A DNA stretch of 36,201 nt from an uncultured Bacilli bacterium (GCA_944371545.1 CALVXT010000002.1:1-36201), one strand, 5' to 3'; counted from the first letter of the stretch, positions 12,003 to 22,708 are shown. The notes: generated by a model from the sequence alone, not told the origin. Numbers and translations are program-made.

Positions 12003-12040
12003 TGCTATAATATAGGGGAAATTTTACCAATTGTTGGTAA
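12003..12040 (+). promoter_or_regulatory. Putative promoter plus perfect palindrome upstream of the OLD-like gene
   Basis: Extended -10 TGcTATAAT at 12003-12011. Inverted repeat TTACCAA-ttg-TTGGTAA at 12024-12040, in the predicted leader or operator position. Confidence 0.4.
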
Positions 12041-12069
12041 ATATGGTAATAGTAGTAGGAGGGTTTAAT

Positions 12070-13896
12070 ATGCAGTATAGTAAGTTTACTATTAAAAATT
12101 ATAGAGCAATTAAGGGACCATTAAAAATCGATTTAAAAAATAAAATTGTACCTTTGGTAGGTATCAATGAGTGTGGTAAAACAACTATTTTACAAGCTAT
12201 TTTTGCTTTTGATATTGCTAATGATAATTTAAATAAATCTAAGCAAATTCAAAATATTGGAAATCTTTACGCTTTAGAGGATGATACTTGCGAAATTGAA
12301 GCTAGCATAAATATACATAAAGAAGAACTGATTAACATTATTGAAAATCTTATAACTGATAATAAAAATTCTAAGATTAAAAATGAAGCAAAGCAAGAAG
12401 AATTGGAGCAAACAAGTCAAGAATGGAAAACGTTTGATATACAAAATCAAAACATAATTCAAGAAAATGATATTTATGCAAAATTGATTCAAATACTTAA
12501 AGATAAAGTTAAAGAAGATGAATTTGAAATAAATATTACCAGATTATTAACTAATGATGAAAATACTTATTATTTATCATTTAAAAGCTTTAATAGAGTT
12601 GAAAATTTTGATCTTATAAGAAATAAATTAGCTACTGAAATAGTAACCAAATTGCCACCAATATTATATAGTGATGATTTTAATGATAGACCTGATGGAG
12701 AAGTCGAAATTACCGAAGAAGGTAATTTTACAGAATGGGAAAGAATATATTCAAGGGTATTTAACAATGCATTAAATAAAAAAGATTTTAGCATTTATTC
12801 ATTATTTGATGAAGATTCAAGAAGACGTAAGTCTACACTTTCAGATGTAAGTAAATATTTAAGTGATAACTTAACTGAAGCATGGTCAAGGTTTTCTAAC
12901 GAAAAAAAGAAGATAACTATTTCATTTGATTTGGATGAAAGAAAAAATAATGATGAAGTGAAAAGAGTGCTTCAAATAAATATAGTTGAAAATGTAAACG
13001 GACAAGAAAGAATATTTGGAGTGTCTGATAGAAGTAAAGGGTTTATTTGGTATTATAATTTTATAATGAAAATTCAATTTAACCCTAAACAAAATAGTAA
13101 TTGTAACACTGTATTTTTATTAGATGAACCTGGTTCTTATTTACATGAAACAGCTCAAAATGAATTATGTAAAAAGCTTGTAGAAATTTCAAAAGATGAG
13201 GGAGTAGTTATTTATTGTACACATTCTCCACAATTATTAAATCCGTTGTATATTCCTTTAAGTACAATTAATATTGTTTCAAAAGTTCAATCTAAAGTAA
13301 ATTGTGTTCCTATTTCTTCATATAAAACTCGTTCAACACAAACAACGGCTTTTCAGCCAATCTATGAAGCATTACAAATTCCAGAGTTCAAACTGATCAA
13401 CAATAATCAAAAAGTTGTTGCAGGTGAAGGAATATACGATAAATACGCAATTGAAATGTTTTGTGATTTACCTAATGATGTAATAGTATTTGGAAGCGCT
13501 AATGCTAAATCTTTGCATGATAACATACAATATTTTATAGCTTTTGCAATTAAATATATAGCAATTTGGGATAATGATCCAGAGGGTAATACACATTGCA
13601 AAAATGCAAAAAACAACTTCGGTGATATTGAAAGCAAAAATTTTTATACTTTGCCGAATTTACATAATAAATCAAAAGTGAGAATGGAAGAAATGTTTGA
13701 ACCAGAGGATATGAATATGATTAATGAGGTGATTGGATTGCCTAAAGATTCATCATATACATTAGCAATGAGTAATTTATACTATTCTGGTAATAAGAAG
13801 ATGTTACTAACGCAAATAAAATCACAACTTTCAAAAAAATGTAATGATAATTTTTCGAATTTAAGCTCTACTATAAAGCAACATTTTAATAAATAA
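12070..13896 (+). CDS. OLD-family nuclease (ABC-type ATPase head plus C-terminal TOPRIM)
   Basis: I prefer the start at ATG 12070 (RBS aggaggg 7 nt upstream) over the ORF-track start at 12031. Walker A GINECGKTT, a long charged/coiled insertion, Walker B VFLLDEPGSYLH, and VIYCTHSP. TOPRIM-like VVAGEG (Glu) and IAIWDNDPEG (DxD) about 50 aa apart. Confidence 0.75.
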   Translation: MQYSKFTIKNYRAIKGPLKIDLKNKIVPLVGINECGKTTILQAIFAFDIANDNLNKSKQIQNIGNLYALEDDTCEIEASINIHKEELINIIENLITDNKNSKIKNEAKQEELEQTSQEWKTFDIQNQNIIQENDIYAKLIQILKDKVKEDEFEINITRLLTNDENTYYLSFKSFNRVENFDLIRNKLATEIVTKLPPILYSDDFNDRPDGEVEITEEGNFTEWERIYSRVFNNALNKKDFSIYSLFDEDSRRRKSTLSDVSKYLSDNLTEAWSRFSNEKKKITISFDLDERKNNDEVKRVLQINIVENVNGQERIFGVSDRSKGFIWYYNFIMKIQFNPKQNSNCNTVFLLDEPGSYLHETAQNELCKKLVEISKDEGVVIYCTHSPQLLNPLYIPLSTINIVSKVQSKVNCVPISSYKTRSTQTTAFQPIYEALQIPEFKLINNNQKVVAGEGIYDKYAIEMFCDLPNDVIVFGSANAKSLHDNIQYFIAFAIKYIAIWDNDPEGNTHCKNAKNNFGDIESKNFYTLPNLHNKSKVRMEEMFEPEDMNMINEVIGLPKDSSYTLAMSNLYYSGNKKMLLTQIKSQLSKKCNDNFSNLSSTIKQHFNK

Positions 13897-13952
13897 AAGT
13901 TGAAATGAGTTTGAATTTATGCAATATTATAAGGCAATAAAGGGGAGATTAT

Positions 13953-14981
13953 ATGGACATGATGCAATATAAACCATGGAAAAGAAAAGAAGTTAATTCT
14001 TTAGTAAGCGAGTCTAATAAGAAATTACCTATATTAGACATTCAGTTAGGTGGAGCATGCAATCTTAGGTGTATTTACTGCGATACTCCCAAATATGGAT
14101 TGCCATGTTCTGTTGATCTTTCATCAATTGAAAAATTAATGAAAGATGGAAATATAAGATGGGTATATGTTTGTGGGCTTGGAGAACCAACAGCTCCTGC
14201 AAATTTAAGACATTTAAAACAAATATTACAATGGTGTAAACAAAGAAATATCGGATTGTCTATGTTTAGTAATATGTTAAATGTTGATAAAGAATTGTTA
14301 GATTATATTGATGATGGTACATTACATGTATTATTTAAATTAGATACTTTTGATAAATCTAAAATGGCTTATCTATATGGTCAAGATAAAGGCGATATAA
14401 TATTAAGAAATTATCAATCATTGAAAGAAGTTACGCATGCTGAAAATGGAGTTACTAACCTAGGTGCTTCAATTGTTCCGACTAGTGTAAACTACAATGA
14501 ATTACCAACTATTATAGATTATTGTATGACAAATGGTATTTTCCCTTTAATTGGCCAACTTAAAGATGCTGGTAGTTGTTCAAAAATATTTAAAGATTTA
14601 GAAGTTAAAGAAGAAGATTTAATTAAATTTAGAAAATATTTATCTCAGACATATGGGGTAAATTATGAAATGCCAACTTATCCTGCTACAATTTCGGGAA
14701 TACATGTAACTAATACAAATAATATAATTTTAGATAAAAGAACAGGGTTGTCTTGTCCTTGGTTCTGGTTAAATGAACCTCAGCTAGAAGTAATTGGCGA
14801 TATACAAAGTATGAATTATGATGAAATTGTTAATAAAATTTTAGAATATAGAGCATCTAAACTTGAAGATGTTGAAACCATGGAAAAACATGTTGAACTT
14901 TATCCATTTGGCGGATGTGGTGGAAATGCAAAACGATTATTAAGGACATATCTTGATATACAAAAAGGTAGAAAATTATAA
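13953..14981 (+). CDS. Radical SAM enzyme of unassigned subfamily
   Basis: RBS aggggag. CNLRCIYC (C36/C40/C43, CxxxCxxC) and a GLGEPT SAM-binding motif. Additional Cys at 209, 268 and 322 (FGGCGGN). It lies 56 nt downstream of the OLD-like gene on the same strand, with no visible terminator between. Confidence 0.75.
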   Translation: MDMMQYKPWKRKEVNSLVSESNKKLPILDIQLGGACNLRCIYCDTPKYGLPCSVDLSSIEKLMKDGNIRWVYVCGLGEPTAPANLRHLKQILQWCKQRNIGLSMFSNMLNVDKELLDYIDDGTLHVLFKLDTFDKSKMAYLYGQDKGDIILRNYQSLKEVTHAENGVTNLGASIVPTSVNYNELPTIIDYCMTNGIFPLIGQLKDAGSCSKIFKDLEVKEEDLIKFRKYLSQTYGVNYEMPTYPATISGIHVTNTNNIILDKRTGLSCPWFWLNEPQLEVIGDIQSMNYDEIVNKILEYRASKLEDVETMEKHVELYPFGGCGGNAKRLLRTYLDIQKGRKL

Positions 14982-15007: not shown

Positions 15008-16380
15008 TTATCGCTCAATATCATCTTTTTCTATTTCTAGTTCTTTATGATTATTTAAATTGTTATTGCCTTGAAGTAGCCTAAAAGTATCATCATCTAA
15101 GGCTCCTTGAGTATATAATTCTTTAGCAAATTCCATATATTTTTCCTTCTCTTTATTTCTATAAATTCTATCCATGAGAAACTGAACTAGATTATAAAAT
15201 AAATTTTTAAAATGTTGAAGAGACTTTTTGAGAGAAATGTTTTCTTCTTGTAATTCTTTGATTTCATCATCTTTTTCTTTGATATTTTTAGTTAAAGTTT
15301 CAATTCTAAGATTATTGGCTTCATTATTTTCAGCTAGCATTTCAATTTTTTTACGGTTGGTAAGAAGTTCATTTTCGACTTCTTTTAAAGTAACGGATAA
15401 CTCTTGTATATTTTGATATTCAGCAATCGTTTTATCAACTAAATCAATAAAGACTAAGGTTTTATCTCTATTAACAACATCTATGACTAATTGATTTTTA
15501 ATTAAACCTTTTGATTTTAAATTTTCAAGCATTTCTCTAATTTTTGTAGTGCTATTCAATAGATTATCAGATTTTTCTTTAGCTCTATTTAAGTTATTTT
15601 GAAGGACTTCAATACTTTTCTTCATTTCCTCATAGTTTTCCATCTCCGATACATGATAATCCTGATTACGACCTTTTAATTTAGGTTTTAGTTTATCATT
15701 TAATAAGTATTCCTTATTGTAAGATTCTATACAAAGTGTTCTCAATTTATCTTGGAGGGTAATCAAGGATTGTTTGGTAATACATCCGATTTACCAACTT
15801 GTTTAGACATACCATTCTTATTTTTATATTTGATTGGAACACCGATTATATGAAGATGGAGAGAAGTTTCATCATAATGAATAATAGCACTTGCTATTTT
15901 AAAATTAGGAACAAGAGTTTCTAAATTTTTGACTTGTTCTTTAAATACATTAGTCATTTTCTTTTTATAATTTATATCTTTTGTATCCCAAAATTTTTTA
16001 TTTCCAAGTTCAATAATAATCTCACAAGCTAAATCACTTTTAGAATTATTACTAACATGAGAAAAGTAATCTTTTATTTTTCTATCTTCTCGGGATTGCC
16101 TATTATTATATTCAATTCTAGCTTCTTCAAACTCATCTTTATATAATTTTTTAACATCATTTACGATTGAATGAGTACCTCGAATAATTTCTATATCATA
16201 TTCTCTATCATCATATTTCCTACAATTATGATTATCACATTTTGATAGTCCAGCTGCATTTTGAATAGCATTATTACTTTTAGAAGTTGTACCACTTAAA
16301 TTAGATTTAGCACTTGCTTTACTACTATTTTTCTTATTTTTATCACTACCTAAATGAAAAGAATATGCTAATTCTATAAT
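15008..16380 (-). pseudogene. MobV/Pre-family relaxase, frameshifted and lacking an ATG start
   Basis: The N-terminal part (open from 16383 to TGA at 15763) carries the HxDE..H.H motif (IHYDETSLHLHIIGVP). The reading frame must switch within 15767-15795: ...MSKQVGKSDV, then ITKQSLITLQDKL.... The C-terminal ORF (15008-15766) is a coiled-coil typical of Pre/Mob tails. After the upstream TGA, only ATT (16380) or ATA (16377) is available as a start, 8 nt after GGAG. Confidence 0.7.
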
Positions 16381-16436
16381 TAATCACGCTCCTTTATTTT
16401 ATTGCTTTTTATAGTAATTAAAGCTATATTTTGGCT

Positions 16437-16472
16437 ATGACAAAATATTTAACCCCCTAGGCATTTTGTCAT
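16437..16472. promoter_or_regulatory. oriT-like inverted repeat upstream of the mob gene
   Basis: Perfect 10-bp inverted repeat atgacaaaat / attttgtcat separated by 16 nt, about 60 bp upstream of the relaxase 5' end. That is where MobV plasmids place oriT. A second small inverted repeat ctaaggc/gccttag sits at 16492-16507. Confidence 0.4.
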
Positions 16473-16547
16473 GCTAACAAAATGCAGGTGGCTAAGGCTC
16501 GCCTTAGAATCCGAAATTAACTATCGTTAATTTATAAATAGAAGAAA

Positions 16548-16838
16548 TTAGCTTAGCCTAATTTCTTCCTCATATTCGTATATCTCGTTTAATACTTTTT
16601 CATTAGCAGGTTTGACTTCAATAGGTGTAGGTTCTTTTCTAAAAGTTAGTGCATCTCTTTTATCAAGTATATATTTAAAAGCATTCTCTTCATCTATTTG
16701 ATAGAACTCATTTTTACTTATCTTTCTAATACTTCCATTAATAAATGTTGGAGTAGTTTTACAAAACTCACAAATAAATTCTAATCTTTGTTTTAGAGTT
16801 TTCTCAAAAGGCATCTCTTGCTTAATAATATTAATCAT
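16548..16838 (-). CDS. Hypothetical 96-aa protein (island-borne)
   Basis: The start is set to ATG 16838 (MINIIKQ..., RBS aggaagga). The longer ORF-track version (to 16973) runs into the tRNA-Gly gene. I recognise no family. Confidence 0.45.
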   Translation of the reverse strand: MINIIKQEMPFEKTLKQRLEFICEFCKTTPTFINGSIRKISKNEFYQIDEENAFKYILDKRDALTFRKEPTPIEVKPANEKVLNEIYEYEEEIRLS

Positions 16839-16945
16839 AAACACCATCCTTCCTTTAGGATGATTTCTTTGTAAACAACAAAAAAACCAATCTTTCGATT
16901 GATTTCTATATATCAATGTCCGAAAAGTTCGAACAGATTCGTCAA

Positions 16946-17019
16946 TGGAGCAGATGATGGGAATCGAACCCACGTGGTCAGCTTGGAAGGCTGAAGTTCT
17001 ACCATTAAACTACATCTGC
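16946..17019 (-). tRNA. tRNA-Gly (anticodon UCC), CCA encoded
   Basis: The reverse complement folds as a 74-nt cloverleaf: acceptor GCAGATG/CATCTGC, D arm GTTT..GAAC, anticodon arm TCAGC-CTTCCAA-GCTGA, T arm GTGGG-TTCGATT-CCCAT, then TCCA. Confidence 0.9.
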
Positions 17020-17123
17020 ATTTCGCTTGACATGATTAATTATACCATAAGTATATGATTTTTCAACAATTTTTTGCTAAAATTATAGAACTTTTTTAAT
17101 TTTTATATTATAATTGTGATGTT

Positions 17124-17199
17124 GCTGGATTAGCTCAGTTGGTAGAGCAACGCCCTCGTAACGCGTAGGTCGCAGGTTCGAGTCCTGTTTCCAGCACCA
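17124..17199 (+). tRNA. tRNA-Thr (anticodon CGU), CCA encoded
   Basis: 76-nt cloverleaf: GCTGGAT acceptor, GCTC-AGTTGGTA-GAGC D arm, anticodon loop CTCGTAA, T arm GCAGG-TTCGAGT-CCTGT, then ACCA. Two non-Watson-Crick pairs (7-66 T.T and 31-39 C.C). Confidence 0.8.
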
Positions 17200-17211
17200 C
17201 TTTTATAAATT

Positions 17212-17242
17212 AAAGATATTAGTTTTTTTGACTAATATCTTT
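17212..17242. terminator. Bidirectional intrinsic terminator (tRNA-Thr on plus, GroEL-like operon on minus)
   Basis: Perfect 12-bp stem aaagatattagt / actaatatcttt with loop ttttttg. The stem ends are A/T-rich, so each strand reads a U-tract after the hairpin. Confidence 0.7.
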
Positions 17243-18724
17243 TTATATATCATAAGATTTTCTGTTTTCTTGGAAATCATTAATAATTAAATGATTAATT
17301 GATAATAACATACAAGCAATGGATACAGCATTTTTTAACGCATAGCTTACTACTTCTAACGGTTCTATTACATTAGTATTGGAAGTACTTTCAAAGTTAT
17401 TTGTTTTTACATTATATAATATTTGAAAATTTTCTTGTTTGATTCTGGTTAAGATTTCTTCTTTTGAAAGGAAAGCATTTTCCAAAATTTGTTTTAAAGG
17501 CATACTTAAAGCTGTTTGGAGTATTTTTGCTCCTGTTGTTTTTGGTTTTATTTCTTCACTTATCTGGTAAAGACAAATTCCTCCCCCAGGCACTATTCCT
17601 TGTTTGGCTATTTCTAATGCACAAAGAGCATCTTCATAACGCATGATTTTTTCTCTCTTTTCAGTAGTGGTTGATGCTCCAACATAAATTGTAGCTAACC
17701 CATAATGAAGTTTAGCAATTCTTTCGGCTAAAATTTCTTTTTGATAGTCTTCATTACTTTGCTCATATCTTTTCTTTAACATATTTCTTCTTTTAAGAGT
17801 ATTTTGATTACTGTGAAAAGTCACTTTATTTTTAGTGATTTTTACTTTTGAAATTGTTTGATTTTCATCTAATAATGTCTCAATATCCTCAATGATTTCT
17901 TCTTCTATATTTTGATATTCAAACCACTCCACAAGAATAATTTGACATTGGCTTTGAATACTCATTTCTACTAAATTTTCTTTTACATTTTTACTATATC
18001 CTTTTGTTAATAAAAGTACAGTTTCTTGATATTCTATACAATTATTTACTAATAAACTTATTTGTTCTAAATTTTCGATTCTTTCATCTATAAAGAAAAC
18101 TTTGCAATTTTCTAATTCTATTTTTTCTTTTCGAAAAAAATATTCTTCTGGAATTTTGCATTCTAATGTATATCCGTTTATTTTTTCATATGTTGTATTT
18201 TCATCTTTACTTTCTTTTAAAAAGATACTTTCTTTGCTTTTTGTTTTTAAAAATACTTCCGTAGTTATTTCACCAATACTTTCATCATTCGCGGCTACTG
18301 TTGCAATTTTTTGAAAGTCTTTTTTTGTTGGATTTTTTTTGAAAGTTGCTAGTTTCTCTAATATTTCTTGTAAAGTCTCTTCTAATTCTACTTTTAAAAT
18401 TTTTCTATTTGTTACTTTTATTCCTTCTTTTAAAAGTGTTTCTAACAAAACAAGAGTTGTAGTAGTTCCATCCCCTACTACTTCATTTGTTTTTAATGAT
18501 GCTTCTTTAGCAATTTCTAGTATCGTTTCAACTACCATATCTTCACTCGTAATATTTTGAGCAATCGTTACGCCATCATTAGTAATAAAAGGTTCACGAT
18601 CTGATGTATTAATTAAAACATTGTTTCCTTTTGGACCTAATGAATCTTTAACCACTCCACATAAAAGTTCTATACTTTCTATCATTTTTTGTTCTAAAAA
18701 TTCTCCACTTATTACTTTTTTCAT
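17243..18724 (-). CDS. Divergent, short (493 aa) Cpn60/GroEL-family chaperonin-like ATPase
   Basis: Equatorial-domain motifs are retained: LGPKGNNVLI, ITNDGVTIA, VGDGTTTTLVL, EDALCALEIAKQGIVPGGG, VIEPLEVV. The middle (apical) region is shorter and not recognisably GroEL-like. There is no GGM tail and no adjacent groES. The start overlaps the upstream stop by 4 nt. Confidence 0.7.
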   Translation of the reverse strand: MKKVISGEFLEQKMIESIELLCGVVKDSLGPKGNNVLINTSDREPFITNDGVTIAQNITSEDMVVETILEIAKEASLKTNEVVGDGTTTTLVLLETLLKEGIKVTNRKILKVELEETLQEILEKLATFKKNPTKKDFQKIATVAANDESIGEITTEVFLKTKSKESIFLKESKDENTTYEKINGYTLECKIPEEYFFRKEKIELENCKVFFIDERIENLEQISLLVNNCIEYQETVLLLTKGYSKNVKENLVEMSIQSQCQIILVEWFEYQNIEEEIIEDIETLLDENQTISKVKITKNKVTFHSNQNTLKRRNMLKKRYEQSNEDYQKEILAERIAKLHYGLATIYVGASTTTEKREKIMRYEDALCALEIAKQGIVPGGGICLYQISEEIKPKTTGAKILQTALSMPLKQILENAFLSKEEILTRIKQENFQILYNVKTNNFESTSNTNVIEPLEVVSYALKNAVSIACMLLSINHLIINDFQENRKSYDI

Positions 18725-19467
18725 TGTTCATCTTCCATTTCTAAAATATTTTTTCTTTTTTTTTTTGTCATAAAGTTTTGTTGACATTTTTTATTTACTC
18801 TTTCTTTTATTGCAATGGTTTTAAAGAAAGATTTCCATAATTCTTCCATATTCTTTTCTTCAGTATTTTGTTTTAAATCTAACTCTATTTCTTTTCCTTC
18901 TAAAAAATAGCAATTTTTTTGATCATATAGACATAATATATCTCGTTTTTCATCTTTTATAATCCATCTTTCTTTTGGCAGTCTTTTCTTAAAATGATTT
19001 GCTAATATTCCTAAAATATTGTTGTCGGCTGTAAATTCCGCATAAAAAATGTGATTTTGTATTTCTTTAAATCTTAAAAAGCCTTTCCATTTATGTGCTT
19101 CTCTTGAAACTCGTTTAGAAATTGTTAATGCTGTGTTTACGCATTTTAAATTGCGCATATAAAGAACATTTTTTTGATATTTAAGACTATTTAATAGAAA
19201 ATAATAAATAATTAATTCTTTATCTTTTTCATTAGATAAAAACACATAATAAGAAATTTTTAATACTTCTTTAGAAATATATTTTTTTAATGTTAAAGTT
19301 TTGATGTTTATAACCGGTTTAAATGGTGGGCTTAATAAATTGTTTTCATATTGGGTTTCTTCAATGATTTGAAAAGGTTTTCTTTTTTCTTTAAAAAGCC
19401 AGGAAATCACCTTTAATAATTCTTCCCAAGTTCCATCATAGATATACGTAAAATTACTTTCCTTCAT
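18721..19467 (-). CDS. DUF4130 / TIGR03915-type 'probable DNA metabolism protein' (family names from memory)
   Basis: 248 aa with WKGFLRFKE ... FYAEFTADNNILGILANHFKKRLPKERWIIKDEKR, which is the pattern I associate with DUF4130. It overlaps the upstream rSAM gene by 14 nt. Confidence 0.6.
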   Translation of the reverse strand: MKESNFTYIYDGTWEELLKVISWLFKEKRKPFQIIEETQYENNLLSPPFKPVINIKTLTLKKYISKEVLKISYYVFLSNEKDKELIIYYFLLNSLKYQKNVLYMRNLKCVNTALTISKRVSREAHKWKGFLRFKEIQNHIFYAEFTADNNILGILANHFKKRLPKERWIIKDEKRDILCLYDQKNCYFLEGKEIELDLKQNTEEKNMEELWKSFFKTIAIKERVNKKCQQNFMTKKKRKNILEMEDEQ

Positions 19468-20674
19468 AGAACAAACTTAATTGTGTAACACTTTCTTTTT
19501 TTTCTTCTTTTTCTTCTAAAATCAAGTTGCTAGTGATGAAACTTTTTTGAAAACAAGAAATATTGGCAAAATACTTTCCGTCACATAATATGAAATATTT
19601 AGCTCTTTTCAGAGAAATGCCCATTTTTTTTAAATCAGAAAAATGAATTGTAAAAAAACGTCTTGATGAAATTATTTTTTTGGCTCCCGTTGGTCCAATC
19701 CCTGGAACTTTTACTAAATCATAATAAGATGCTTTGTTTATTTCTTTTGGAAATTCTTCTAAATGTCTTAATGCCCAGTCAGCTTTGGGATCTAGTAAAA
19801 CATTAAAATTTGGATTGTCTTTTTCTAATAAATCATCTACTTTAAAATTATAATATCTAAGCAACCAGTCGGCTTGATACAAACGGTTTTCTCTTTTTAA
19901 TGGGGGCATTTTGATGCTTGGTAGATTTTTATCTTTATTGACAGCAATATAGGCTGAATAAAAAACTCTTTTTAGTTGATAAGTTTGATAAAGATTACTA
20001 CTTTTTGACATAATATCTAAATCTGTTTCATTTGTGGCTCCGATTATCATTTGCGTACTTTGGCCTGCTGGAGTAAAGATTTTGCTTTTTTTCTTTTTAA
20101 CAAAACTCATAATTTCTGTTACTTTTGAAGTATTTTTGTCGGGCGCGAGTAAGGTTAAGCCATTTTCTGTAGGAAGTTCAATATTGGCACTTAATCTATC
20201 TACTAATAATCCTAATTTTTGAATTAAGTATTCACTGGCACCTGGAATTGCTTTCGCATGAATGTACCCATTGAAATGATATTTGTTTCGCAACAAAGAA
20301 ATTGTTTCAATCATTTTCTCCATAGTATAATCAGGGCTTTTTATGATTCCTGAAGATAAAAATAATCCTTCAATATAATTTCTTTTATAGAAATTTATAG
20401 TAATTGATGCGATTTCTTCTGGTGTAAAAATAGCACGCCTTACTTGATTGCTTTTGCGATTAATACAGTATTTGCAATCAAAAATACAACAATTTGTCAT
20501 CAAAATTTTTAATAAAGAGATGCATCTTCCGTCCGAGGAAAAAGAATGACAAATTCCAGAAATGGCTCCATTACCTATTCCATTTTTATTTTTTCTTGCA
20601 CTGCCACTTGAAGAACAAGAAACATCATATTTGGCACTATCGGCTAAAATTTCTAATTTTTCTTTTAAAGTCAT
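19454..20674 (-). CDS. Putative DNA modification/repair radical SAM protein (TIGR03916-like) with C-terminal helix-hairpin-helix
   Basis: CIFDCKYC (CxxxCxxC) and an HhH-like VPGIGPTGAKKIISSRR. The usual partner, DUF4130, is immediately downstream. Start is either ATG 20674 (MTLKEKLEIL) or the ORF-track GTG at 20683. Confidence 0.7.
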   Translation of the reverse strand: MTLKEKLEILADSAKYDVSCSSSGSARKNKNGIGNGAISGICHSFSSDGRCISLLKILMTNCCIFDCKYCINRKSNQVRRAIFTPEEIASITINFYKRNYIEGLFLSSGIIKSPDYTMEKMIETISLLRNKYHFNGYIHAKAIPGASEYLIQKLGLLVDRLSANIELPTENGLTLLAPDKNTSKVTEIMSFVKKKKSKIFTPAGQSTQMIIGATNETDLDIMSKSSNLYQTYQLKRVFYSAYIAVNKDKNLPSIKMPPLKRENRLYQADWLLRYYNFKVDDLLEKDNPNFNVLLDPKADWALRHLEEFPKEINKASYYDLVKVPGIGPTGAKKIISSRRFFTIHFSDLKKMGISLKRAKYFILCDGKYFANISCFQKSFITSNLILEEKEEKKESVTQLSLFYEGK

Positions 20675-20691
20675 AGGTATCACCGGACAAT

Positions 20692-20721
20692 ATTATACCA
20701 CACAACACGAATATTTGTTTG
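20692..20721 (-). promoter_or_regulatory. Extended -10 promoter with an overlapping LexA (Cheo)-box-like palindrome
   Basis: Minus strand TGgTATAAT (20692-20700). On the plus strand CGAATATTTGTTTG at 20708-20721, against the Firmicutes consensus CGAAC-N4-GTTCG (two C-to-T departures in the arms). Confidence 0.3.
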
Positions 20722-20758
20722 CTAATTTTTACCAAAAAAAATTCCTTTGACAAGGAAA

Positions 20759-21235
20759 CTAATTTTGAACATTTGCTAAAATATATTCTTTTGCTTCTTC
20801 TAAGGATATACCAAAGACCGTGGCAATTTCTGAATATAATAAATTTTCGGCTAGTGTAAAATATTTGTTATCTTTTTCACTTATTTTTTTATTATTGTTT
20901 AAGCGATCTTGATTTCTTTTATAGGTTGTTTTAATAATTCTAATTAAGTCCTCTTTACTTCCTGAGTGATATAATCTTTTGTATTCATTTTCTAATAGTT
21001 TGTCTTCAATATCAATTAATGGAATGGATGGCATTAAAGCAATTAAATTTTTGATTTCTTCTTTAGTCATTAAGTTCTTAATATTTGGATTATTTACGGG
21101 TACATTTAATTTTAATGATGAATCTGTTACTGGTACCAAAATAAAACTTTCTAAATTCGTAAATTCATTAATTTTTTGTTCTTTGATTTGACAAACTTGT
21201 TCTTGATAAATGACATAATCTCCAACTTTTAACAT
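20759..21235 (-). CDS. CarD/CdnL-family RNA-polymerase-binding regulator
   Basis: The start is moved to ATG 21235 (MLKVGDYVIY, RBS gaggggag 7 nt upstream); the ORF-track start is a TTG. The protein has a CarD_TRCF-like N-terminal beta domain and a helical C-terminus, about 158 aa in total. Confidence 0.65.
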   Translation of the reverse strand: MLKVGDYVIYQEQVCQIKEQKINEFTNLESFILVPVTDSSLKLNVPVNNPNIKNLMTKEEIKNLIALMPSIPLIDIEDKLLENEYKRLYHSGSKEDLIRIIKTTYKRNQDRLNNNKKISEKDNKYFTLAENLLYSEIATVFGISLEEAKEYILANVQN

Positions 21236-21254
21236 ATGTAAACTCCCCTCTAAC

Positions 21255-21293
21255 AAAAAAGCTATTCAACTGGTTTTACGCCCATGAATAGCT
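21255..21293 (-). terminator. Intrinsic terminator after the ligD-like gene
   Basis: Perfect 9-bp stem agctattca / tgaatagct with a 16-nt loop, followed on the minus strand by T5-6. Confidence 0.5.
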
Positions 21294-21355: not shown

Positions 21356-22708
21356 TTATAAAAAATCTTTTAATTCTTGCCATGGATCTTGTCTATTTAA
21401 TCTTTTGATTGCTTCTTTCATTGTTATTTCATTTGGTTTTACTTTATCTAATTCACTCCATTTAATAGGCATGGAAACAGGAATATTTTTTCTTAAACGA
21501 ACTGAGTACGGAGCAACACTTGTGGCTTTTTCGGTATTTCGAACCCAATCAATAAAAATTTTGTTTCTTCTTTTCTTTTTACTCATATTACTCGTATATT
21601 TTTCAGGCCATTTTTTCTCCATTAGGTTAGCAATATTTTTTGCGAAATTTCGAAAATCATTCCAACTTTTCATCGGCAATGGAACCACTATATGATACCC
21701 TTTTCCTCCGCTTGTTTTTAAAAAAGCTGGTAATTTTAATTCATCTAAAATACTTTTTAAATCTTTTACTCCTTCACGAACTTTTTCTAGAGAAAGTTTT
21801 TCGTCTGGGTCTAAATCAAAAATCATTAAGTTTGGTTTTTTTATTTTAGGAACAGTACTTCCCCAAATATGAAATTCATAACTATTCATTTGAACTTCTG
21901 ATAAGATACCTTGTGTATCTTTAATATAATAGTAGTCTTCTTTTTTTCCTTTATCATTCGTTATTTTTATTTTTCCTAAATAGTTATCGATATTTTCAAA
22001 ATGTTTTTTATAAAATTTTGTTTTTTCTATACCTTGTGGACTTCTTATCGTGCTTATTAGTCTATTTTTTATATAAGGAAGCATACGTTCTGCTATTTTT
22101 TCATAATAAGAAAATATATCTTTTTTGGTAATTTTATTTTTTTTATCAATCATCTTTTCTGAATTTGTTAGGATGATTTTTCCAGCAATTTCTTCCATAG
22201 TTTTCCCACTTCGAATGCTCGTTGTAAAGTTTTTTATATCTTGAAATGGTTCTTCATCTTTTTCTTTAATCAAAAGCCAATTTTCTTCTTTAAATGGAAT
22301 TAATGTCCAATGTCCTTTTAATCTTTTCCCATGTAAAAGAAATTTTATGGGCTTTTTGAAAGAAACTGTTGAACTTATTGGTTCCCAGTATCCTTCATCC
22401 CAAATCATCACTGTACCTCCACCATATTCTCCTTTTGGAATAGTTCCTTCAAAATTTCGATAATTCAAAGGATGATCCTCTACTTTTACGGCTAATCGCC
22501 TATCTTTCGAATTATAAGAAGGTCCTTTTGGCACTGCCCAACTTTTTAAAACGCCATGCCATTCTAATCTTAAATCAAAGTGGTCTTTTCTTGCTAAGTG
22601 ATGTTGAACAACAAAATGAAGTTTTTTGGTACTTTTTTGTTTTTTTCCTATTGGTTCTTTTGTCTTTTTAAAATTTCTTTTTTTATTATATTTTTGTAAT
22701 TCACGCAT
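21356..22708 (-). CDS. LigD-type 3'-phosphoesterase + AEP polymerase/primase fusion (no ligase domain)
   Basis: N-terminal PE domain: KRNFKKTKEP, VVQHHLARKDHFDLRLEW, GTIPKGEYGGGTV. C-terminal LigD-Pol domain: MIFDLDPDE, KTSGGKGYHIVVPL, IFIDWVRN. Confidence 0.8.
   Translation of the reverse strand: MRELQKYNKKRNFKKTKEPIGKKQKSTKKLHFVVQHHLARKDHFDLRLEWHGVLKSWAVPKGPSYNSKDRRLAVKVEDHPLNYRNFEGTIPKGEYGGGTVMIWDEGYWEPISSTVSFKKPIKFLLHGKRLKGHWTLIPFKEENWLLIKEKDEEPFQDIKNFTTSIRSGKTMEEIAGKIILTNSEKMIDKKNKITKKDIFSYYEKIAERMLPYIKNRLISTIRSPQGIEKTKFYKKHFENIDNYLGKIKITNDKGKKEDYYYIKDTQGILSEVQMNSYEFHIWGSTVPKIKKPNLMIFDLDPDEKLSLEKVREGVKDLKSILDELKLPAFLKTSGGKGYHIVVPLPMKSWNDFRNFAKNIANLMEKKWPEKYTSNMSKKKRRNKIFIDWVRNTEKATSVAPYSVRLRKNIPVSMPIKWSELDKVKPNEITMKEAIKRLNRQDPWQELKDFL

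Follow-up and report, generated by a model that had tools for sequence, protein, structure and literature searches.

A divergent GroEL-derived chaperonin encoded within a radical SAM-DUF4130 operon of low-GC Bacilli

Specialised GroEL paralogues include mycobacterial GroEL1/Cpn60.1, the nif- and nod-linked GroELs of rhizobia, and chlamydial GroEL2 and GroEL3. Here, we describe a 493-aa Cpn60-family protein whose gene follows a radical S-adenosylmethionine (SAM) gene and a DUF4130 gene in a minus-strand operon (17243-20683) of an uncultured Bacilli bacterium (GCA_944371545.1, CALVXT010000002.1:1-36201; the whole stretch of 36,201 nt is termed the window hereafter). The specialised paralogues share with it a duplicated chaperonin gene, a narrower task, and an altered C-terminal tail, and some of them work without a GroES of their own. 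They are, however, usually much closer to canonical GroEL and are not known to be translationally coupled to a presumed client, whereas in the present case the chaperonin gene lies inside the operon of its presumed client and successive stages in the loss of the lid are still preserved. Specifically, the window protein reached 58-80 bits against the models for chlamydial GroEL2/3, which have cut-offs of 600. The GroEL-like proteins of phages (EL gp146, OBP, and AR9) and the single-ring mitochondrial Hsp60 can act as single rings, the phage versions without a co-chaperonin, and a single-ring, lid-free likeness to them is suggested here because both the lid and the inter-ring residues have been lost. 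The phage chaperonins are nevertheless only remotely similar to the window protein (phmmer E = 1.6e-20 to 6tmt over 210 residues; 13-23% identity to BFVD models). Myxococcus GroEL2 is another specialised paralogue (PMC3578752).

The other described system to which the locus relates is the SOS-regulated module of a radical SAM protein and a DUF4130/uracil-DNA glycosylase (UDG) protein (TIGR03916-TIGR03915; COG4277-COG1573). Known modules consist of two genes, with the DUF4130 domain often fused to a family 4 UDG. The first two genes of the window operon are full members of these families, but the window version is without the UDG domain and has the chaperonin gene in addition. Damage regulation of the module is reported for Bacteroidetes, Verrucomicrobia, Alphaproteobacteria, and Acinetobacter (PMC8565304, PMC12392091), and its regulation by SOS or DNA damage is also described in PMC3765255. 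According to AlphaFold 3 predictions in a 2026 bioRxiv preprint, the DUF4130 family and the radical SAM protein form a tight heterodimer that acts on nucleic acid.

Our interpretation, to which we assign a probability of roughly 0.55, is that the Cpn60-like protein is a private, lid-less, probably single-ring chaperonin for the radical SAM-DUF4130 complex and is inducible by DNA damage. We infer the client, the ring stoichiometry, the independence from GroES, and the LexA control from comparisons of sequences. While specialised GroEL paralogues are already known, what is new here is the fusion with the operon of the presumed client, a control that appears to be of the SOS type, and the survival of forms that document how the lid was lost step by step. 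The preliminary description of this DNA had supposed such a linkage to be undescribed, and we found no description of it in the literature searched (full text, for the pair families, for GroEL-like proteins with radical SAM, and for Breznakia with GroEL).

Linkage of the chaperonin gene to the radical SAM-DUF4130 pair

The first gene of the operon encodes a TIGR03916-family radical SAM protein of 406 aa (19454..20674 in its ATG-start form, within an open reading frame [ORF] spanning 19454-20683; minus strand). It scored 620.6 bits against the TIGR03916 cut-off of 343.5, also matched PF04055, and was 66-89% identical to its orthologues in related loci. The CIFDCKYC cluster motif (CxxxCxxC) was present, and the C-terminal helix-hairpin-helix was matched, weakly, by HHH_3 at residues 315-342. 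Based on comparison with homologues and a GGTGA ribosome-binding site (20680..20684, minus strand) located 5 nt ahead of it, the start is most likely the ATG at 20674 rather than the GTG at 20683; GGTGA precedes the radical SAM start in most related loci. The second gene (18721..19467, minus strand) starts 14 nt inside the end of the first and encodes a TIGR03915/DUF4130 protein of 248 aa, scoring 197.3 bits against a cut-off of 112.25, and 146.6 bits against PF13566. The third (17243..18724, minus strand) overlaps the DUF4130 stop codon by 4 nt (ATGA, 18721-18724) and encodes the Cpn60-like protein, a derived group I chaperonin (termed type B) that matched PF00118 with 138.4 bits over residues 24-481. 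The operon noticed in the preliminary description is thus real, and both family assignments made there for the radical SAM-DUF4130 pair hold; the genes read as one transcription unit, from an extended -10 promoter to a hairpin terminator. None of the three proteins had a match in a PADLOC search for defence systems. The window is chromosomal and about 27% GC (the genomes that carry the trio are 24-28% GC), and also contains an arginine deiminase operon, a pyruvate:ferredoxin oxidoreductase gene, and cell-wall glycosyltransferase genes.

In all 24 distinct loci found to carry this clade of chaperonins (loci are labelled L001-L256, and database proteins by P-numbers), the radical SAM and then the DUF4130 gene were located directly upstream of the Cpn60 gene, so that a chance arrangement is excluded. 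Contexts of the window type were read in the window itself, L001, L004-L007, L011, L085-L087, L088-L093, L096, and L248, and here the trio genes overlap. Across the 24 loci the reading frames overlapped in most, and in the rest lay within about 30 nt of each other; in L094 and L250, for instance, the Cpn60 gene starts 24-29 nt past the DUF4130 stop. The flanks, in contrast, varied by locus and included genes for polysaccharide synthesis, peptide deformylase, Ham1, ABC transporters, and recombinases. For comparison, we used 77 canonical groEL loci, comprising 76 from a scan of genome contigs and L254. The radical SAM-DUF4130 pair was present in none of the 77 and groES in every one, directly upstream of groEL in 74 of the 76 from the scan. 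The scan itself retained 80 loci among the matches listed, most of them canonical Firmicutes GroELs and at least four of them members of the clade (L005-L007, L011).

In the reverse survey, a radical SAM alignment was searched against metagenome contigs. Wherever the radical SAM protein was at least 63% identical to that of the window and enough downstream DNA was available, a Cpn60 gene followed the DUF4130 gene (8/8 loci). About 65 loci with radical SAM proteins of 51-61% identity had the pair only, without Cpn60, and the genes that came next were unrelated from locus to locus, with no conserved third gene after DUF4130 in these pair-only loci. A module of two genes, widely distributed, has thus acquired its third gene in a single lineage; and since those roughly 65 pairs do without it, the Cpn60-like protein reads as an accessory to the module and not as a core part. 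The linked loci came from one part of the Bacilli, namely Erysipelotrichales and related very low-GC Bacilli.

A restricted distribution of this kind would also be expected if there were no functional link, that is, if the adjacency reflected gene order conserved by descent in a single lineage, or if the Cpn60-like gene were a decaying remnant. In this respect, the linked radical SAM proteins form one clade and the 24 loci do not amount to 24 independent events. We nonetheless consider this explanation very improbable. The trio has stayed intact, in its tightly packed frames, while the flanks differ in almost every locus; the arrangement persists though the Cpn60 has diverged to about 30% identity; and no clade member was found away from the pair among the 24 loci. 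Moreover, comparison with the 93%-identical relative L248 gave a dN/dS of 0.089 for the Cpn60-like gene (0.034 for radical SAM and 0.17 for DUF4130). The gene is under purifying selection, which excludes decay.

Clade relatives of the window protein were 492-523 aa long and about 40-45% identical to it, and the family comprised at least 55 clusters (at 50% identity) that scored above 460 bits against the family profile. The profile matched twice along the length of the database proteins P0300 and P0307 (1078 and 1081 aa, respectively), each of which looks like two fused Cpn60 units; this could be real or an artefact of gene calling. One of the loci, L011 (contig CAYNFP010000005.1), is titled Muribaculaceae, yet has 24% GC and the trio of low-GC Bacilli, and is probably mis-binned or mislabelled.

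Retained and lost chaperonin features and their origin

The Cpn60-like protein resembles canonical GroEL in its fold and its ATP site, and departs from it in most other respects. The AlphaFold2 model, a monomer with a mean confidence score (pLDDT) of 91.2, had Foldseek template-modelling scores of 0.80-0.87 and root-mean-square deviations of 3.3-5 Å to the GroEL/Hsp60 subunits of T. thermophilus, E. coli, and mitochondria (in GroES-bound or ATP states), and thus predicts that the three-domain fold (equatorial, intermediate, and apical) is kept. GDGTTT, VPGGG, and VIEP were present, as the preliminary description had reported for the equatorial motifs. Over 102 family members, and in E. coli numbering (used for GroEL positions unless stated otherwise), D52, D87, G88, T89, D398, and G414 were invariant, while the ATP-site positions D52, D87, T89-91, D398, G414, G416, and D495 were conserved in 92-102 members. 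The D495 position is D or E (E in the window), and at G415 most members have S, although the window protein retains G. The residues for ATP binding and hydrolysis (T30-P33, D52, D87-T91, D398, G414-G416, and D495) are therefore kept, as are the hinge glycines G192, G375, and G410.

The apical domain has changed at the positions that contact GroES and substrate: Y199 is replaced by L, I, or N (I in the window), L234 by S or A, V264 by S or E, N265 by L, I, or Y, and R268 by N, E, D, or Q. Y203, F204, L237, and V263 stay hydrophobic, as do most positions of the apical groove. The R197-E386 salt bridge has been lost, and the inter-ring positions A109, R452, E461, S463, and V464 are variable and polar or charged, or are deleted. 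In length, the window form falls short of E. coli GroEL by about 55 residues. Four internal segments (108-111, 300-317, 334-337, and 427-433; about 36 residues) are absent, and the 19-residue tail end with the GGM repeats (530-548) is replaced by a short, different tail. Thus, the protein, initially described as truncated, is not cut short at one end, and the apical region, although trimmed by about 22 residues and lacking the GroES-contact consensus, is not unrecognisable, since it is predicted to fold as a GroEL apical domain. The reported absence of a GGM tail and of groES in the window was borne out; with 74 GroES queries, tblastn gave no match in the window or in 11 loci of the window type.

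The replacement tail, of 9-15 residues across the family, is predicted to be disordered and ends in [ED]-[LIMF], with an acidic residue at -2 in 87 and a hydrophobic one at -1 in 101 of the 102 members, and the acidic-then-hydrophobic end in about 85%. In window-type proteins the C-terminus reads [YF]-x-[ED]-[LIMF]-COOH (window residues 483-493), and in the longer forms described below it reads ...ES[IV]IKK[DE]LNDQL...G[L][FY]-COOH; both motifs stand in place of the GGM repeats that line the floor of the GroEL cavity. Additionally, 32 positions are conserved in the family yet unlike canonical GroEL, including the invariant apical N227 and Y185 (the latter in window numbering). The family is acidic, with a mean isoelectric point of 5.1 and a net charge of about -14.

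Such changes could mean that the ring of the window branch has been neofunctionalised as an ATPase subunit. It would then no longer be a folding chamber but would belong permanently to the radical SAM-DUF4130 machine, as an ATP-driven component or a scaffold. It could, for example, hold several heterodimers by means of its C-terminal tails, or gate the access of damaged nucleic acid to the radical SAM site. The loss of Cpn10, of the GroES-contact residues, of R197-E386, and of the inter-ring contacts speaks for this explanation, as do the 32 family-specific positions and the new motif on the disordered tail; translational coupling suggests a matched stoichiometry, and a DNA-binding GroEL homologue has a reported precedent in M. 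tuberculosis GroEL1 (PMC2731897). Nevertheless, we regard the subunit explanation as possible but not likely, in that the ancestors of the protein were equipped with Cpn10, and such a lid typifies a folding chamber; a cycling chaperonin would have the same ATP site and hinge glycines; and the pair works without a Cpn60-like protein in most lineages. Direct DNA binding by the Cpn60-like protein itself is unlikely given the acidity of the family.

All scores against GroEL models fell below the cut-offs (NF009487, 281.6 vs 352; NF000592, 264.5 vs 397; TIGR02348, 252 vs 582.1), and identity to GroELs of solved structure was 24-30%. GroEL was nonetheless the nearest chaperonin. In PDB searches GroELs were matched with E = 1e-47 to 1e-59, compared with 1e-11 to 1e-18 for thermosomes, and the thermosome models gave 58-63 bits against cut-offs of 400-671. 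An identity as a thermosome/CCT or phage chaperonin was thus ruled out. A phage origin was rejected as well, in that all matches in IMG/VR were canonical host-type GroELs at 27-30% identity and the phage models were more distant than the cellular ones; no clade members were found in IMG/VR. By descent and predicted fold, then, the protein is a group I chaperonin, one that fails the tests of a GroEL in score, co-chaperonin, apical consensus, inter-ring contacts, and tail.

More conservative relatives were also found next to the same pair. The Cpn60 of L094 was much less diverged, at 47-50% identity to canonical GroELs, and a search with it exposed a clade of 537-557-aa proteins, including those named by NCBI 'chaperonin GroEL [Breznakia sp. 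PF5-3]' and '[Coprobacillaceae bacterium]'. The Breznakia isolate had a three-gene operon of radical SAM, DUF4130, and a 547-aa Cpn60, as had L252 and L256. The operons of L253 and L255 had a fourth gene, encoding a 91-aa Cpn10, between DUF4130 and a 537- or 538-aa Cpn60, and every junction overlapped by 4 nt. This private Cpn10 was 27-31% identical to canonical GroES proteins, which average 56% among themselves, and scored 37 bits against GroES cut-offs of 96-215. The Cpn60s of the 547-aa and four-gene forms keep Y199, L259, and N265; at 558-586 bits they pass the subfamily models, but they fail the equivalog model (553-568 vs 582).

In neighbor-joining reconstructions the 547-aa forms, the four-gene forms among them, grouped with the window form in 40 of 40 bootstraps, a figure that long-branch attraction may inflate. 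Derived features common to the Cpn60s linked to radical SAM genes were M394, C401, and Y193 (M361, C368, and Y185 in window numbering), together with the loss of R197 and of the inter-ring residues. The linked radical SAM proteins formed a clade in 21 of 40 bootstraps, and in the others the pair-only L097, L099, and L100 were added. The grouping of the Cpn60s, their shared derived residues, and the clustering of the linked radical SAM proteins together suggest a single origin for all of these chaperonins. The clade evidently descends from a GroES/GroEL pair, with the window protein as its most derived member. We propose that a groES-groEL pair was first appended to the radical SAM-DUF4130 genes, as would be represented by the surviving four-gene operons; that the Cpn10 gene was then lost, giving rise to the 547-aa forms of Breznakia and Coprobacillaceae; and that the window branch subsequently lost the GroES contacts, R197-E386, the inter-ring contacts, the internal residues, and the GGM tail. 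Because relatives still carry the matching GroES gene, the clade is suggested to have begun as a private folding machine for the pair.

Predicted regulation and neighbouring genes

Upstream of the operon, an extended -10 element, TGGTATAAT (20692..20700, minus strand), was read from the sequence, and TATAAT was located at an equal distance from the start codon in L001, L004, L005, L006, and L248. Over the -35 region lies an operator-like imperfect palindrome, GCAAACAAATATTCG (20708..20722, minus strand), which occupies that region and thereby explains why the promoter was absent from a simple promoter scan. With one mismatch per half-site (CAAAC-AAAT-ATTCG), it is a predicted LexA-type site; the reference Cheo box of the Firmicutes LexA regulon is CGAAC-N4-GTTCG, and the palindrome of the relatives is CAAAC-N4-GTTTG. 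A search for the exact CAAAC-N4-GTTTG in the window gave only a chance-level match, at a position elsewhere than the promoter. At the same promoter position, relatives had GCAAACAAACGTTTGC (L005, L253), CAAACAAATGTTTG (L006, L087, L255), and AAACAATTGTTTG (L011), and pair-only Firmicutes loci had AGAACATTTGTTCG, of the AGAAC-N4-GTTCG type. Most Firmicutes loci of the window-type, four-gene, and pair-only kinds had a GAAC/AAAC-N4-GTTC/GTTT palindrome at the radical SAM promoter. Of 18 upstream regions, 6 contained the strict motif RAAC-N4-GTTY, for which the background rate was 0.007 per 100 nt (P ~1e-9). The resemblance of this palindrome to the LexA (Cheo) box of Gram-positive bacteria is the basis on which we predict LexA control. 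Given this operator and the damage regulation of the module in other phyla, the whole operon, chaperonin included, is likely to be induced by DNA damage.

The loci of the 547-aa forms differed in having a divergently transcribed repressor gene upstream, with helix-turn-helix (HTH) and S24-peptidase domains, LexA-like. In L250 (3249-4020), L252 (5236-6006), and L256 (2500-3268), this HTH_3 + Peptidase_S24 repressor (LexA-like, 76 bits) faces the radical SAM gene. The intergenic region that the two genes share in Breznakia-type loci contained repeated GTACGT-N2-ACGTAC-like palindromes in place of the Cheo-like box, and the repressor may be a dedicated damage-sensing switch.

No CIRCE element, the operator of the heat-shock groE operon, was found in the window, and control by CIRCE/HrcA was rejected, since the window had no match within three mismatches. 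Whereas canonical groEL belongs to a CIRCE heat-shock operon, the window gene belongs to a repair operon with a LexA-like box. This bears on whether the protein might simply be a general or housekeeping chaperonin, either the sole GroEL of the organism, which would have degenerated along with its reduced and AT-rich genome, or one that is damage-induced and serves many clients. The low GC content of the genomes and the naming of the 547-aa forms as 'chaperonin GroEL' by NCBI can be counted in its favor, and GroEL has reportedly been lost in related wall-less lineages. However, the Cpn60-like proteins have diverged rapidly, with a mean identity within the clade of 41%, compared with 71% for the radical SAM proteins and 68% (minimum 51%) for canonical GroELs across phyla. 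Together with the scores under all GroEL cut-offs, the lack of groES in the window and the 11 loci tested, the operator type, the same two upstream partners amid changing neighbours, and the high divergence of even the private Cpn10, this renders a housekeeping role quite improbable.

At the other end of the operon, directly after the Cpn60-like stop codon, was a terminator-like 12-bp hairpin (17212..17242, minus strand) made up of AAAGATATTAGT, a 7-nt loop, and ACTAATATCTTT, with a T-rich tail. Its predicted RNA fold was -11.2 kcal/mol (z = -5.0), a stability that none of 200 shuffled sequences reached, and it was not listed by a consensus terminator scan because its stem is AT-rich. A shorter hairpin with a T-run (TTCCTT-GTCA-AAGGAA, then T8; 20733..20757, minus strand) lies 3′ of the upstream CarD-like gene; its fold is weak (z = -1.3), and it plausibly marks the 5′ boundary of the operon.

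The gene directly upstream of the operon (20759-21256, minus strand) encodes a CarD/CdnL-like protein of 165 aa with sub-threshold Pfam matches, which was also present upstream in L001-L004, L007, and L248, was not in L085-L087, and is probably a separate transcription unit. A LigD polymerase + 3′-phosphoesterase protein without the ligase domain is encoded 0.7 kb upstream of the operon (21356-22708, minus strand). In L086, a homologue (15714-17108) is encoded some 4 kb away from the trio. Neither Ku nor ligase genes were seen in the window. The DNA 3′ of the Cpn60-like gene is variable. It contains tRNA-Thr and tRNA-Gly in the window (16946-17199), a serine recombinase and nSTAND3 in the 93%-identical relative (L248, 4707-14309), and a cyclic oligonucleotide-based antiphage signalling system (CBASS) or integrase in a 71%-identical relative (L001/L002, 9522-17494), and the site looks like an integration hot spot. 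A 141-aa ORF here (16548-16973, minus strand) overlaps tRNA-Gly (16946-17019), has no family match, and is probably not a gene. Finally, an OLD/AriA/GajA-like AAA_15 ATPase (621 aa) and then an unrelated radical SAM protein (342 aa, with weak pVip/MoaA-like matches) are encoded at 12031-14981 on the plus strand, with strand and GC skew opposite to their neighbours, and look like an inserted defence-type gene pair.

A proposed private chaperonin and its possible significance

For the interpretation that we favor, a private chaperonin, the ancestry of an embedded Cpn10/Cpn60 pair is the strongest argument, as it indicates that the role of the protein is, or at least was, protein folding. The dedicated maturation factor raised as one option in the preliminary description is accordingly the option we prefer, given that related operons keep a private Cpn10 between DUF4130 and Cpn60. 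Once the operon is switched on, the Cpn60-like ring would bind the newly made radical SAM protein, a triosephosphate isomerase (TIM)-barrel protein, and/or its DUF4130 partner, and, driven by ATP, would help the two to fold or to assemble into their heterodimer. TIM-barrel proteins are reportedly over-represented among the obligate clients of GroEL.

Several points weigh against this interpretation. Linkage in an operon is also what one would expect of a structural subunit, or of a general chaperonin that is induced by damage, and most bacteria run the pair without a dedicated chaperonin. The residues for binding substrate and GroES that are lost here (Y199 and N265, plus L234 and V264) are invariant in canonical GroELs; together with the 32 family-specific positions and the new C-terminal motif, their loss could signify a changed function and not a narrower set of clients. 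The possible inflation of the neighbor-joining grouping noted above is to be added to these. An explanation that would take up the changed function, and which we regard as unlikely, is that a lid-less, single-ring ATPase stays bound to radical SAM-DUF4130 heterodimers, where its apical movements would control the radical SAM reaction on damaged nucleic acid. Docking could be by way of the acidic-hydrophobic C-terminal tails or the remodelled apical domains. If this were true, it would present a chaperonin turned enzyme subunit.

For chaperonin biology, the clade provides a series, arisen in nature, that leads from the capture of a GroES/GroEL pair by an operon to the loss of the lid, of the double-ring contacts, and of the generic substrate-binding residues, with selection still acting. 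This series is a ready-made system for studying the path from a general chaperonin to one that is specific for its client and independent of GroES. There is also a matter of annotation, in that the 547-aa forms are plain 'chaperonin GroEL' at NCBI, while the window-type forms seen here are without a name. The findings also matter for DNA repair, in which the TIGR03916/TIGR03915 module is a widespread, damage-induced system. The need for a private chaperonin suggests that the radical SAM-DUF4130 complex is hard to fold, and active enzyme may be obtainable by co-expression with the Cpn60 that belongs to it, in the presence or absence of Cpn10. Breznakia, which is cultivable, offers an experimental host.

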